Notes under the pieces: model-generated
Told to the model about the DNA's origin: nothing
Seen by the model: only the letters and a program-made list of their open reading frames with translations
Databases searched by the model: none
Assembly: GCA_039190745.1 (NCBI GenBank)
Contig: JBCCXZ010000016.1
Location: forward strand, 1-63,298
DNA from: Planctomycetota bacterium
GTDB taxonomy: Bacteria; Planctomycetota; Planctomycetia; Pirellulales; Lacipirellulaceae
Direction: 5' to 3'
Length of the DNA stretch: 63,298 nucleotides
In this document: piece after piece, positions 1,113-33,310 of the stretch
How the letters are laid out: every line of letters begins with the position of its first letter
How positions within the stretch are numbered: position 1 is the first letter of the stretch
Made by a program: the position numbers and the translations under genes

Positions 1113-1429
1113 CGAAACGGCTCCTGAACAGGTCACTGCGGAAGAGGGGCGGACGGTCAAACCCGCATTTTCCCGAATCGAGGAGCGTTGGCAACCTGCT
1201 TAGCCGAGCCACAAGTCCGACGATCGGCCAGCAATCACGTCTCGGTAGCCTTCCAAGATTGCCTCGCGGATAGCAGACGCTTCAGAAGCAATCTCGCCTT
1301 CTCTTTCGTTTGGCATGAAAACGGGTTCCCTGCTAGGAGGAAGAGTGGCGTTGAAGAACCAATACTCAGTGCCATGCACACGCTCGGGTAGGCACTCTCC
1401 ATCGCAGCATCCTGAAGGCCACTCAGAAC

Positions 1430-2053
1430 TCAGTCACCATTCGCGTCGTGCCAACTCTGAGTGCGTCCGTAAGGCCTCTTTAAGAGCATCACATTGAGGG
1501 CGATTACTGCGAGCAGGGCAGCAGTCGGCTCAGGGATCGATGCGATACCATAAGGAACTTTGCCTTCAACCGAAGTACTAAGAAGGGCACCAGGTTGACC
1601 ATAAATTGCCAAGGCAGCCAGCGAGTCAGAAACCACGTGCCACGAAACTGCAAGCGTTTCGCTTGGGTAGTATTCGTTGATACCTGAGAAACCGGGCAAC
1701 TCCCCCTCGAACCCAAGGTGAGTAGTAAACGGTTCCCCCGCAAGAAAGAGGTCGCTATCGCTCGCGAAGACGCCGCGAAGATCGCCCAGTCGAGCCGTCT
1801 GCAACGTAAAGTGAAACGGATACTGCCCAACGACCTTGATATCGAAGTCGACGATATTCTCCGCCGCAAGCTCGCCCAGGGTGCCGTCGGTCTTGATGTA
1901 TCCGTTTCCGAATAAGAATTGAGGTCCTACCCAAGGGTACTGAGGAGGTGAGTATGACCACACAGTTGTCGGAATATGGTAAGTCTTCGCCGATGCCAAG
2001 GGAGCATAGAATAGGAATGCGAGTAGAAGGCTTGCAACTCTCTTGAGTGTCAT
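1430..2053 (-). CDS. PEP-CTERM sorting-domain surface protein
   Basis: Signal peptide (..PLASA); C-terminal IPEPTAALLAVIALNVMLLKR; lower GC than neighbours. Confidence 0.75.
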   Translation of the reverse strand: MTLKRVASLLLAFLFYAPLASAKTYHIPTTVWSYSPPQYPWVGPQFLFGNGYIKTDGTLGELAAENIVDFDIKVVGQYPFHFTLQTARLGDLRGVFASDSDLFLAGEPFTTHLGFEGELPGFSGINEYYPSETLAVSWHVVSDSLAALAIYGQPGALLSTSVEGKVPYGIASIPEPTAALLAVIALNVMLLKRPYGRTQSWHDANGD

Positions 2054-2204
2054 AAGATCGCCTCTTGGGCTTCTGGGCATCGTCTACTTTGGCTAGGCCA
2101 GCCACTTGTTCAGGTGGGAGGTTACGCGACCAAATGCCCATCTGCAAAGTGCGATTTGTGGAGCGACGGCAAGTGCAATTCCACACCCTGCTGGCGCCTG
2201 TACC

Positions 2205-2660
2205 CACTCTTTAGTGCATTCCTATTTATCAATCTTCTCCGTAGAAAATGGCCACCCCACACAATATACTGTACACCCAATCACTACCGTTCTTTGACAA
2301 CCAACACTCCCCAAGAGGCACAGCACTCAGCGCCCCCTCTGCGCCTTAGCGCCTTTGCGAGAAACCTCCCTTCTGTCTTTCAAACCAATCGAACCCCAAG
2401 CAGAACCCCCAACCCAACAGCATCCAGCAAGCTCCCCTAACCCCAACCGCAACCACCACTTCGCACCCGCAGCACAACCCAACCCCAGCCGCCTTCTGCA
2501 AAGCGCATAGAACCAAAACCCCAACGAGTTTCGTCCGCGCGTTGATAGCCGCCGACCTACGCGTCGGCGGCAAACCCGCCATCGACCCCGACAGAACAAA
2601 CCGACTTCCGTCCACGCCATGCGTGATCGCGGATTCCGCGACAAAAGAGAAAGCCACACT
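2205..2660 (+). other. Non-coding dispersed element, copy 1 (promoter + boxA-like motif + structured 3' block)
   Basis: Collinear similarity to 32851-33310; see findings. Confidence 0.65.
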
Positions 2661-2669
2661 CCAAGAAAC

Positions 2670-4505
2670 TCAGAGCAGCTCCTCAAGCTGCCCCACCAGC
2701 AGCTCGAAACGGTCCAGCGCCGTCAGCACCGGCTCCGGCTGGCTCATATCCACCCCCGCGTCACGCAGCAGCTCCAGCGGGTACTTCGTCCGACCCGCCT
2801 TCAAGAACGAAAGGTAATCCCCCAACTCCCGCTTCCCGCCGTTGAGCACCCGCTCCGAGAGCGCGATCGCCGCCGACAAACCCGTCGCGTACTGGTACAC
2901 GTAGAACGCCCGGTAGAAGTGCGGGATCCGCAAACACTCCAGCCGCAGCTCGTCGTCCACCACGAACTTCGGCCCGAAGTAGTCGGCCAGCAGCTTGCCG
3001 TATTCCTCCTTCAGCCGGTCGACCGTCAGCGGCTCCCCCGCCTCGGCCAGCTCGTGGATCACCTTCTCGAACTCGGCGAACATCGTCTGGCGGATGATCG
3101 TCCCGCGGATGCCGTCGATCTCGAGGTTGATCAGGTAAGCCCGCTCCGCGTCCGACTTCGCCCGCTCGATCAGCCGCCGACCGAGTAACTGCTCGTTGAA
3201 CGTGCTCGCCACCTCGGCAACAAAAATCACATAGTTGTAATCCTGGTACGGCTGCGACTTCGCCGAGAAGTAGCTGTGCATCGAGTGCCCCGCCTCGTGG
3301 GCGAGCGTGAACACGTGGTCCAGCACCTTCGGCTGGTAGTTCATCATGATGTACGGCGCCCCGTCGAAGGTGCCGTAGCTGAACGCCCCGCTCTGCTTCC
3401 CGCGGTTGGGGTACCGGTCGCACCACCGCCCGTCGGTCAGCCCGTGCCGCAGCACCCCGCAGTACTCCGAACCCAACGGCTCCAGTGATTCCATCACCAC
3501 ATCAACAGCCTGCTTCCACGTCCGCCGCTGATCCAGGTCCGCCAAGATCGGCACGTAGGTGTCGTAGTGATGGATCTCGCTCAGCTTCATCTTCCGCCGA
3601 CGCAGCTCGAAGTACCGGTGCACCGCCGGCAACCGGCTCCGCACCGACGCGATCAGGTTGTCGTACACCGCCGGCTCGACGTCGTCGTCGAACAACGCCG
3701 AAGCCAAGGCGCTCTCGTAGCCGCGGGCCTTGGCGTAGTACACGTCAGCCTGCACCGAGCCGCTCAGCGTCGCGGCCAGCGAGTTCTCGTGCCCCGCAAA
3801 CACCTTGTAGAACTGATGGAACGCCGCCTTCCGCACCCGCCGGCTCGGCGAACGCAGCAGCGTCGCGAACGACGACTGCGACAGCTCTACCGACACGCCG
3901 TCCTCGTCCTTCACCTCGCCGAACGTGAAATCCGCGTCGGTCAGCTGACCGAACACCGTCCGGGCCGTGGAGGCCATCTCGCCCTGCATCGCGAGCAGCC
4001 GCTCCTCCTTGCCGCTAAGCGTGTGCGGCCGGTAACGAGCGATCCGATCAAGCATACCCCGGTAGGGCTTCAACTCCTTCGAATCCAGCAGCTTGGCGAA
4101 CTTTGCCTTGGGGATCCCCAGCAGCTCGGGCCGGATGTAGCTGGCCAGCTCCGCCGCCTCGCTCGCCGCGTGCCGGTAGCGGCCCATCATCCGCTGGTAG
4201 TCGCTCGCGGCGGTGTCCTCGGCCGTCTTCAGGAAGGCGTAGACGCCCAGCCGCTCGGCCTGCCGATCGAACTTCGTGTCGAACTTCAAACAAGCCGCAA
4301 GCGCCACGGGCCCGTCGCCCAGCGTGCCGCGGAACTTCTCGTACTGCTTGATGCTCTTGCGCCACTTCTCGAACGCCGCTTCCCAAGCCGCGTCGTCGTC
4401 AAACAGGCTCGTCAGGTCCCAGGTATCCGGCTCCTTCACCGCCGACCGCTTCGGCAACGACGCGGTCTTCAGTTTGGCGGGGCGCTTCTTGAGGGTCGTG
4501 CTCAC
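2670..4505 (-). CDS. pepF: Oligoendopeptidase F (M3B)
   Basis: WDLTSLF N-terminus, GKQSGAFS, TLAHEAGHSMHS, FVAEVAST, IPHFY..FYVYQYATG. Confidence 0.95.
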   Translation of the reverse strand: MSTTLKKRPAKLKTASLPKRSAVKEPDTWDLTSLFDDDAAWEAAFEKWRKSIKQYEKFRGTLGDGPVALAACLKFDTKFDRQAERLGVYAFLKTAEDTAASDYQRMMGRYRHAASEAAELASYIRPELLGIPKAKFAKLLDSKELKPYRGMLDRIARYRPHTLSGKEERLLAMQGEMASTARTVFGQLTDADFTFGEVKDEDGVSVELSQSSFATLLRSPSRRVRKAAFHQFYKVFAGHENSLAATLSGSVQADVYYAKARGYESALASALFDDDVEPAVYDNLIASVRSRLPAVHRYFELRRRKMKLSEIHHYDTYVPILADLDQRRTWKQAVDVVMESLEPLGSEYCGVLRHGLTDGRWCDRYPNRGKQSGAFSYGTFDGAPYIMMNYQPKVLDHVFTLAHEAGHSMHSYFSAKSQPYQDYNYVIFVAEVASTFNEQLLGRRLIERAKSDAERAYLINLEIDGIRGTIIRQTMFAEFEKVIHELAEAGEPLTVDRLKEEYGKLLADYFGPKFVVDDELRLECLRIPHFYRAFYVYQYATGLSAAIALSERVLNGGKRELGDYLSFLKAGRTKYPLELLRDAGVDMSQPEPVLTALDRFELLVGQLEELL

Positions 4506-32091: not shown

Positions 32092-32125
32092 AGAGGCTGT
32101 TTCAATACATCGGACGGACCATTGG

Positions 32126-32266
32126 GTGGCTGGGGACGAACGGAGTGAGCCCCCAAGATCGCGGACCACTGGGGGTTCGCTGCGCTCATCCCCAGCCACT
32201 CGCCCGTCTGCTCGCCACTCCTTGGCCGCAGGCCAAGCTCACCGTAGCCTGGGGCAACGCCCCAGG
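32126..32266. repeat. REP-like palindrome cluster
   Basis: GTGGCTGGGGA..CCCCCA / TGGGGG..TCCCCAGCCAC long stem (32126-32199), TTGGCC-GCA-GGCCAA, CCTGGGGC-AAC-GCCCCAGG. Confidence 0.75.
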
Positions 32267-32354
32267 TGCCATGAGCCAGCCATTAGCGCCGCCGGCCCAC
32301 GCGTTCTCGAAGCGCCGTCAGCAGGTCCGTGGACAGCAAGAGCGGGCTGATTAT

Positions 32355-32755
32355 GAGCTGCGTCCCCTTTGATAGTCCCCAGTCGGCAGCCCGGTTACAA
32401 TTGCGACACTTGACCCGCCCGCAGAGCAGGCCCAAGAAGGCCGAATAAGAGCTGCGTCCCCTTAATTTCCCGAGAAGGCAGGGCTGTGGTGCCGGAGATT
32501 GTCTTCTTTCTCATCAAGTCATTCTTAGTATTCTGCGGAGTGTTTTTCCTTACGGGATTCTTGGCCGGTCTCATGCTCCCTCCGGGCGGTAGATCTTGAA
32601 CTTGCTGTTTGTCGTAGTTGCGTTTCTCGTGCTCAGTGGGTTGTGCGGCCCGGTTGGAGGTGCGGCCTATAGGTGCGGGCGGCGCTGCGGGGCCTACGTT
32701 AGATTAAGAGGCTGGAATTTTTTGAAGGGAAGGTAAAGGGAAGGGGACGCAGCTC
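32355..32755. repeat. Three copies of GAGCTGCGTCCCCTT (two direct, one inverted)
   Basis: Exact 15-mers at 32355-32369 (+), 32449-32463 (+) and 32741-32755 (-). Confidence 0.85.
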
Positions 32756-32850
32756 ATTTCTGACTCACGGCTGTTTCAGATGCCTGGAGACGAGAACAGC
32801 AAGGCCCCGGTGTCGCTTTCCCGATAAAGCCTCTCGCTGCCCCGGGGTTT

Positions 32851-33310
32851 CCACTCCCCTCTCGCTCTCTGAATGCTACTCATTGAATACGGCCACATGA
32901 TCAGATATACAGTACACTGCCGCTAAAGCACTCGTTCCTTGACAACCAAGCCGTTAGCGATCAGCCGTTAGCCCTCAGCCACAGGGCCCGCGGCCGCGCC
33001 CTCTCTGCGTCTCCGCGCCTCTGCGAGAGCCCCTTCCGTCCGCGGCCGCTCAGAGCCCACGTGCAAAACGCGCCCGCGCTCGAACGGCCTTCGAGTCCAC
33101 AAGGTGATCGACGACAACGCATTGCGCCGACCGCTCCAGCCGCGGGCCGACGACTTTTGCAAAGCCCCAAAGCACAGAACCTCAGCAGTTTTGTCCGCTC
33201 GCAGATAGCCGCGATGCTACGCATCGCTGGAAAACCCGCGACCCGCTCCGACAGAACCCATCGCTTCTGTCCGCGTCGCGCGAGAAGGGCTTATTCGTGC
33301 CAAAACCCAA
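32851..33310 (+). other. Non-coding dispersed element, copy 2
   Basis: Collinear similarity to 2205-2660; contains AGCCGTT/AGCGATC heptamer tandem at 32949-32980. Confidence 0.65.

Follow-up and report, generated by a model that had tools for sequence, protein, structure and literature searches.

We compared two non-coding stretches, at positions 2205-2660 (copy 1) and 32851-33310 (copy 2), of the window, that is, the whole 63,298-nucleotide stretch of planctomycete DNA that was analyzed. The two had been predicted to be diverged copies of one dispersed element, and a block-by-block alignment with rechecked coordinates found their shared blocks in the predicted order and places. Their similarity was above chance, with nhmmer recovering copy 2 from copy 1 at an E-value of 1.6e-18, and the four short ORFs overlapping the copies had no Pfam match, in line with the claim that no ORF is conserved. 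The location held, but the extent did not, the conserved unit spanning about 2241-2646 and 32882-33305. Read 5' to 3', the element consists of a promoter, a boxA, a variable REP-like filler, and alternating inverted half-sites of 7-8 bp (A and B). The genome of the window is labeled G000, related genomes G001, G080, and so on, and fetched loci carry L numbers. The features of the window are as follows.

1195..2240, no strand: variable upstream zone of copy 1, of low GC (0.54 vs 0.65), with other DNA in G001
1430-2080, minus strand: unannotated ORF of 216 codons upstream of copy 1, with a 33% identical homolog upstream of a different G001 element (L084)
2241..2646, plus strand: class I element copy 1, from the promoter to the last half-site, B5, as delimited by alignment; its G001 ortholog (L102) is 86% identical over the element
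2242..2270, plus strand: predicted sigma70-like promoter of copy 1, with the -35 at 2242-2247, a family-specific conserved spacer word at 2250-2256, and the -10 at 2265-2270
2288..2304, plus strand: boxA antitermination word of copy 1, identical to the word in four relatives' 16S leaders and also present within a tRNA array of G001
2337..2362, plus strand: REP-like filler repeat in the variable zone, with short multi-copy matches in its own and related genomes and differing between copies
2371..2500, plus strand: class-I-specific upstream half-sites A1, B1, A2, B2, and A3 at near-fixed spacings, with A2 and B2 decayed in copy 1
2511..2646, plus strand: core array of copy 1, with inverted half-sites B3 at 2511, A4 at 2529, B4 at 2590, A5 at 2606, and B5 at 2640
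2546..2570, plus strand: REP-like hairpin in the 54-bp central spacer, which occurs outside elements too and is absent from homologs in other genera
32092..32740, no strand: variable upstream zone of copy 2 with inverted repeats, unaligned to the G001 ortholog
32882..33305, plus strand: class I element copy 2, with a G001 ortholog of 83% identity over 470 nt
32883..32911, plus strand: predicted promoter of copy 2, with the -35 at 32883, the spacer word at 32891-32897, and the -10 at 32906
32933..32949, plus strand: boxA of copy 2, the same word as in 16S leaders
33172..33305, plus strand: core array of copy 2, with B3 at 33172, A4 at 33189, the hairpin at 33206-33230, B4 at 33250, A5 at 33265, and B5 at 33299

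Copy 1 had been counted as one of two, but the genome carries about 70 members, comprising 20 long class I copies (about 430 nt), 43 short class II copies (about 250-400 nt), and 7 partial copies. Both window copies belong to class I by alignment. The 70-member census used two matrices, one for the 5' motif and one for the 3' end, and genome counts are matrix scans rather than literal motif counts; iterated nhmmer returned 19 full-length copies in this genome. Above 13 bits, the 5'-motif matrix had 52 matches in the genome vs 0 in one shuffled strand, with non-coding DNA of 200 nt or more behind nearly all of the matches, and the arrays lie at a density of about one per 55 kb. Further copies, which the original prediction proposed to search for, were thus found in its own genome and also in relatives. 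The literature search, outside which most subscription papers fall, returned no description of the element.

The sigma70-like promoter motif predicted from sequence was recovered in both copies (-35/-10 at 2242/2265 and 32883/32906), as were the boxA-like words at 2288 and 32933, which are identical to the word in four 16S leaders. The boxA was present in most class I copies and few class II copies, and promoter and boxA were conserved across two families; the presence of the two suggests that the unit may still be transcribed. Neither the 47 tRNA calls nor the four 16S genes had the element promoter motif upstream. In 24 of 102 element promoters, the right half of an SOS-like dyad of 5-N4-5 form, a putative box trained on five sites upstream of lexA, recA, and dinB, stood at an offset of exactly four bases from the -10, vs 0-9 promoters at other offsets; both window copies lack this dyad over the -10. 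The region upstream of lexA (L180:1880-1970) has an SOS-like dyad together with two words like the element half-site, and strong dyads also stand at G000 C52:24264 and C66:9182, before an HTH gene and a second Y-family-polymerase-like gene, both named by eye from their N-terminal sequence. The boxA word recurred in other settings as well, including five tandem copies of 17 bp each in one element (L083:~4000-4085; G001 C1:1120329-1120412) and an array of about 20 tRNA calls with internal boxA (G001 L090:1053-5532). At L109:3150-3750, minus strand, a boxA lies in a long non-coding leader before a transposase-like ORF and has no element array; this leader is possibly an unknown RNA.

The half-sites of the core array are spaced at about 16/61/15/34 bp from start to start. 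Across 31 class I copies, the A4-B4 distance was 61 in 27, B4-A5 was 15-16 in 29, A5-B5 was 34 in 28, and A3-B3 was constant in 30, despite a spacer identity of only 0.37-0.45 (37-45%). The 55 arrays of other genomes, found with search models that themselves favor the learned spacing, had A4-B4 at 59-62 bp in all cases, B4-A5 at 15 bp in 51 (range 15-16), and A5-B5 at 31-35 bp in 53, with an AT-rich patch in the center of the 54-bp spacer. With a matrix trained on elements, half-sites occurred at 12.4 per kb in elements vs 1.3 in other intergenic DNA, and B-then-A pairs at 15-16 bp numbered 48 inside elements and 2 outside. An eighth half-site base was common to all sites of an element, including same-orientation sites, which cannot pair; agreement at this base was 24 vs 12.3 expected for A4/A5 and 19 vs 11.0 for B4/B5 (n = 37, with kin not independent). 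Fixed spacing, the lack of a consensus fold, and the eighth base shared also by same-orientation sites fit a DNA repeat read by a protein. Motif columns were more conserved between orthologs than other columns (0.907 vs 0.762, and 0.747 at fourfold sites), and because this identity is inflated by the choice of columns, the argument for selection was rested on the spacing among paralogs. By eye, the 5' and 3' motifs also appear to bear a degenerate terminal-repeat relation to each other.

Of the 120 family genomes, 40 had matches to the array model R2, each between 1 and at least 26, and 12 of these 40 had supplied training sequences. R2 also matched in 4 of 6 genomes of one other family, with none in the other families of the order that were sampled and none in 150 further genomes of the phylum. 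Judged by identity, the expansion in G000 is old, since the best paralog identity is at most 0.78 and the median for G000-G001 orthologs is 0.75. The copies of G080 are 76-93% alike. In G131, which belongs to a different genus, a single array of the window genus's type stands at the end of a contig (C7:24-194; L188) and represents either a recent transfer or a binning error.

Flanks were compared for 81 G001 element calls drawn from fetched loci rather than the whole genome. Among 50 elements whose downstream flank led to a G000 element, 31 had no syntenic upstream flank, with homology ending within -20 to +6 of the 5' motif in 19 of these, and 6 of the 25 elements anchored upstream had no downstream flank. 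In a second test, 21 of 33 scorable elements (74 examined) were broken upstream vs 20 of 74 scorable control edges (116 examined), the control edges being those next to gaps of at least 300 bp. Copy 1 follows this pattern, its alignment to the G001 ortholog beginning precisely at base 2241. Erosion to the first constrained base, rather than targeted insertion, may account for part of the sharp upstream edge. Upstream ORFs included PIN/MazE, Fic, AbiJ-TIR, RelA/SpoT, SMI1, methylases, DUF1559, PEP-CTERM, and IS transposases; many were ordinary or unannotated, and no gene family recurred among the 118, 74, and 131 ORFs of three flank surveys. All 3 Y1_Tnp matches of G001 had an element less than 1 kb downstream. 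Irrespective of packaging, the elements define about 70 precise boundaries of turnover in defense, toxin-antitoxin, and surface genes in these genomes.

Several single loci were recorded alongside these comparisons. Upstream of copy 2, window positions 32360-32760 hold, by eye, inverted repeats around an apparently frameshifted small membrane-protein ORF. The 5' edge of one element is duplicated over 90 nt at 89% identity (G000 C24:10623-10712 and C24:11861-11950; L318), with the upstream duplicate about 1.24 kb from the element and the DNA between them absent in G001, and this case looks like integration at the 5' motif. Two inverted elements with swapped flanks were found on comparing L106 (G001 C4:737044-755763) with G000 C17:43538 and 52614, corresponding to an inversion of about 9 kb with breakpoints inside the elements. 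A separate multi-copy non-coding repeat of about 350 bp, often upstream of elements, occurs at G000 C8:21664-21954, C37:21172-21511, C47:22600-22952, and C66:8639-8995. Candidate classes that were tried and rejected include MITEs or other non-autonomous IS (terminal inverted repeats, target duplication, and near-identical young copies were not found), the ends of IS3-family elements, which the 5' motif had seemed to resemble (the ends of the resident IS3 element differ from it), IS110 bridge RNA (PF02371 in 1 of 5 element-rich genomes, none in G000 or G001), retroelements such as retrons, group II introns, or DGRs (reverse transcriptase PF00078 in 0 of 2 genomes), and known Rfam families (0 matches at gathering score in the window). 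The ends of Tn7 and Tn3 may bear some resemblance as well. No cognate transposase, recombinase, or reverse transcriptase was found beside the elements.

The element-type promoter was also identified upstream of a terS-like gene of the same genome, where a weak copy of it precedes the gene together with an SOS-like dyad.

C80:13029-13538 of G000, strand not given: terS-like ORF P0001, 169 residues, single copy, without phage neighbors

P0001 matched the terminase small subunit profile phrog_4102 with an E-value of 1.2e-15, and in its viral homologs the next ORF was TerL in 14 of 16 tested, out of 49 viral loci; by profile match and phage relatives upstream of TerL, it belongs to the TerS family. 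The match to Pfam Sf6_terminase was below the cut-off, P0001 had no sequence match among solved structures, and tblastn gave no match in named phages. Its AF2 model (pLDDT 88.7), inspected for an N-terminal HTH and a helical oligomerization core, had Sf6 TerS as the top Foldseek match, at an E-value of 0.017, above 0.001, and a low TM of 0.34-0.46, and the N-terminus of the model fits the Hin HTH with an rmsd of about 1.5. The gene is 95% identical in G001, and homologs were identified in 104 of 120 family genomes. TerL of the family PF03237, the one family searched, was absent from G000 and G001. No integrase, replication, or capsid-remodeling genes were seen beside P0001, whose neighbors are ordinary chromosomal genes (partly judged by eye), and no literature joining terminase small subunit, Planctomycetes, and gene transfer agent was found.

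The array is linked to this gene at part of its loci. By eye, the element-type promoter precedes about ten of the terS-like homolog loci displayed, and for the four-site chain with the geometry of the window, 6 of the 29 loci scored 24 bits or more and 10 scored 18 or more, vs 0 of 57 control windows reaching 18 bits (maximum 15.4); the remaining 19 loci scored below 18. The terS-linked arrays start at -10 to +54 from the stop codon and align with those of the window, with B3 overlapping the stop codon in two. A model including these arrays gave 20 matches in 3 of 5 untrained genomes, 2 of the 20 directly behind terS-like genes. There was no array directly behind the terS-like gene in G000, G001, G083, or G075, G001 having a promoter-less array about 3.5 kb downstream, and within about 1.5 kb of the 69 arrays picked by models R1 and R2 in other genomes there was no terS-like gene. 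The elements showed no coding remnant of terS. Gene and array were poorly correlated in presence, with many genomes harboring the gene and no R2 match, and three genomes harboring arrays without a P0001 match (G078, G094, and G034; fragmented assemblies, 85-93% complete). None of the 38 viral loci of P0001 relatives that were scored, out of 49, had the array (maximum 16.7), so the array is not the pac region of those phages, and the element had no DNA match in plasmid and phage collections.

From these sequence relationships, we consider it probable that the elements derive from a promoter-terS-array module, without its gene, and are bound by a TerS-like protein. The module would consist of a sigma70 promoter, often with an SOS-like operator and boxA, followed by a small-terminase-like HTH gene and an inverted half-site array beginning at the stop codon. 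The elements would be gene-less descendants that are read in trans by a retained TerS-like protein, which would form a ring, bind the half-sites through its Hin-like HTH, and wrap or bend the core of about 135 bp around its AT-rich center. More weakly, DNA damage or prophage induction might lead this protein to recruit a phage large terminase, and the roughly 70 arrays would then act as dispersed pac-like start sites from which adjacent host DNA is packaged and transduced. Packaging is put forward as the likeliest job by analogy with SPP1 pac and with SaPI TerS at pseudo-pac sites, and as such it is a tentative suggestion; if arrays were packaged from, this would help explain the exchange of accessory genes beside them. 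Taken as a whole, this is the best explanation that we can offer, and we hold its being right and its being wrong in about equal balance.

The original prediction had instead seen a promoter-driven, antiterminated, structured non-coding RNA, a reading that we regard as very unlikely. It draws on the true boxA and promoter conserved across two families and on half-sites that are mutually reverse-complementary and can form hairpins; the folding z of -1.5 to -1.9 vs shuffles was equal on both strands and came from misregistered columns. RNAalifold on 26 copies gave a value of -0.3 kcal/mol, its six pairs being confined to the central hairpin, and the supposed covariation of that hairpin turned out to be two variants of a REP-like palindrome found 39 times inside elements and 26 times outside. 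Of 25 A-B combinations in 31 copies, only A2-B2 clearly beat shuffles, which represents joint decay in one subgroup rather than pair-specific covariation. The absence of boxA from most class II copies also speaks against an RNA, as do the missing Rfam match and the lineage-specific hairpin; nine G001 loci gave tRNAs only in Rfam, symmetric pairing was absent from the 54-nt spacer in the 55 arrays of other genomes, and a sequence-only model found the array geometry kept in other genera without the hairpin. Antisense control of pepF, proposed for copy 1, is not a general role: of 65 downstream genes, 39 are convergent and 26 co-directional, and no gene family recurs in the flanks. The fixed-spacing half-site array, the link to a terS-like gene, and the upstream turnover of accessory genes had escaped the original prediction. 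The hairpin is, by its occurrence, a REP-like passenger in this genus; like the filler, it fits the REP/REPIN pattern of a palindrome that occurs alone and in doublets near RAYT, and the element core does not. It could be listed in the supplementary REP tables of PMC3733652 and PMC6006769. The alternative of a non-autonomous element, also raised in the original prediction, fared better. In one form, a mobile or mosaic repeat (REPIN-, BOX-, or MITE-like) would be spread by RAYT or another transposase with the terS-like gene as a passenger. We think this quite unlikely, although REP-like filler and hairpin, the Y1_Tnp genes of G001 (with one also nearby at 2 of 11 G080 loci), the alike G080 copies, and one filled/empty pair, in which the element and 1.3 kb upstream are absent in G000, are in its favor. 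G000 has no near-identical paralogs (best 0.78), no Y1_Tnp, and, like G001, no reverse transcriptase, the IS110 transposase is confined to 1 of 5 element-rich genomes, the junctions inspected gave no evidence of target duplication or terminal repeats, and motif columns and spacing would not be preserved in a decayed MITE whose spacers had fallen to about 40% identity.

Roles in regulation, nucleoid structuring, or anti-phage decoy are close rivals to packaging. Here the origin and the binder would be the same, and the TerS-like protein would serve as a chromosome-organizing or promoter-repressing factor, or the arrays as an anti-phage decoy that misdirects or titrates TerL. The conservation of a single-copy gene without phage neighbors, the absence of PF03237 TerL from G000 and G001, and the density of about one array per 55 kb are compatible with such a job, and the title of a work cited in PMC6316719 states that the SPP1 terminase represses its own promoter. 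We nevertheless judge it unlikely, as the patchy copy number, ranging from 0 to at least 26 in a genome, does not resemble that of a core nucleoid system, and the polar turnover of upstream DNA is left unexplained. On the preferred reading of gene-less TerS-bound derivatives, a domesticated phage small terminase and dozens of SOS-linked, pac-like docking units beside accessory-gene hot spots might amount to a host-encoded, distributed transduction system, a doubtful possibility at present, which would hijack any compatible phage TerL to export chosen chromosomal regions while itself lacking a prophage, an island, and a GTA cluster. Should an orphan TerS read the arrays, bacteria would be able to pre-install packaging starts and steer which genes phages move, which so far has been described for phage satellites and chance pseudo-pac sites. 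If true, this would also provide a rare natural set of TerS half-sites varying between lineages, making DNA recognition by the TerS ring directly testable.

Several known systems share parts of this organization. Pneumococcal BOX and RUP are dispersed, intergenic, lineage-specific mosaic repeats, and integron attC and cassette arrays have two nested inverted 7-bp boxes and variable cassette genes. The element resembles integrons in its nested inverted 7-bp boxes and cassette-type variable neighbors (toxin-antitoxin, immunity, RM), whereas it has a constant spacer length and no pairing signal, its exchange edge lies on the upstream side of the promoter, and its cargo occurs in either orientation. 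In lambda cosB, inverted TerS sites surround an IHF bend, and inverted sites likewise flank the AT-rich center here. REP/REPIN-RAYT systems are described in PMC3733652 and PMC6006769 as dispersed, intergenic, lineage-specific mosaic repeats. The likeness to these and to BOX and RUP lies in mosaic dispersal and in REP-like hairpins and RAYT genes clustering at element sites; unlike REP/REPIN and BOX, the element has a conserved core made of a promoter and a half-site array of fixed geometry, which is kept where the hairpin is missing. In SPP1, pac overlaps the terS gene together with its promoter (PMC6316719). The terS gene of SaPI belongs to an operon under LexA control (PMC3152322), and SaPI TerS uses chromosomal pseudo-pac sites in island-mediated generalized transduction (PMC6687093). 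Sequence-specific TerS-pac binding has been hard to show in vitro (PMC9611059), a point against the preferred reading. The predicted array resembles SPP1/SF6 pac as a multi-site TerS recognition region tied to terS and its promoter, but it follows the stop codon rather than lying over the promoter and the 5' part of the gene. It further differs from SPP1 pac and cosB in its dozens of gene-less chromosomal copies and its absence at phage loci of viral relatives, no homology to the pac region of a phage with a related terS having been found in the 38 viral loci scored or the phage collection. With SaPI/PICI, the element system shares a non-phage terS and dispersed chromosomal sites by accessory genes; it would likewise need a helper TerL, and the putative dyad may place its terS under SOS control. 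No island of integrase, replication, and packaging genes surrounds terS, unlike in SaPI/PICI, and in place of chance look-alikes the sites here are units of 250-430 bp that carry a promoter and are apparently constrained. A member of none of the families tested, the element would, by analogy, work like pac or pseudo-pac with a satellite-type TerS.
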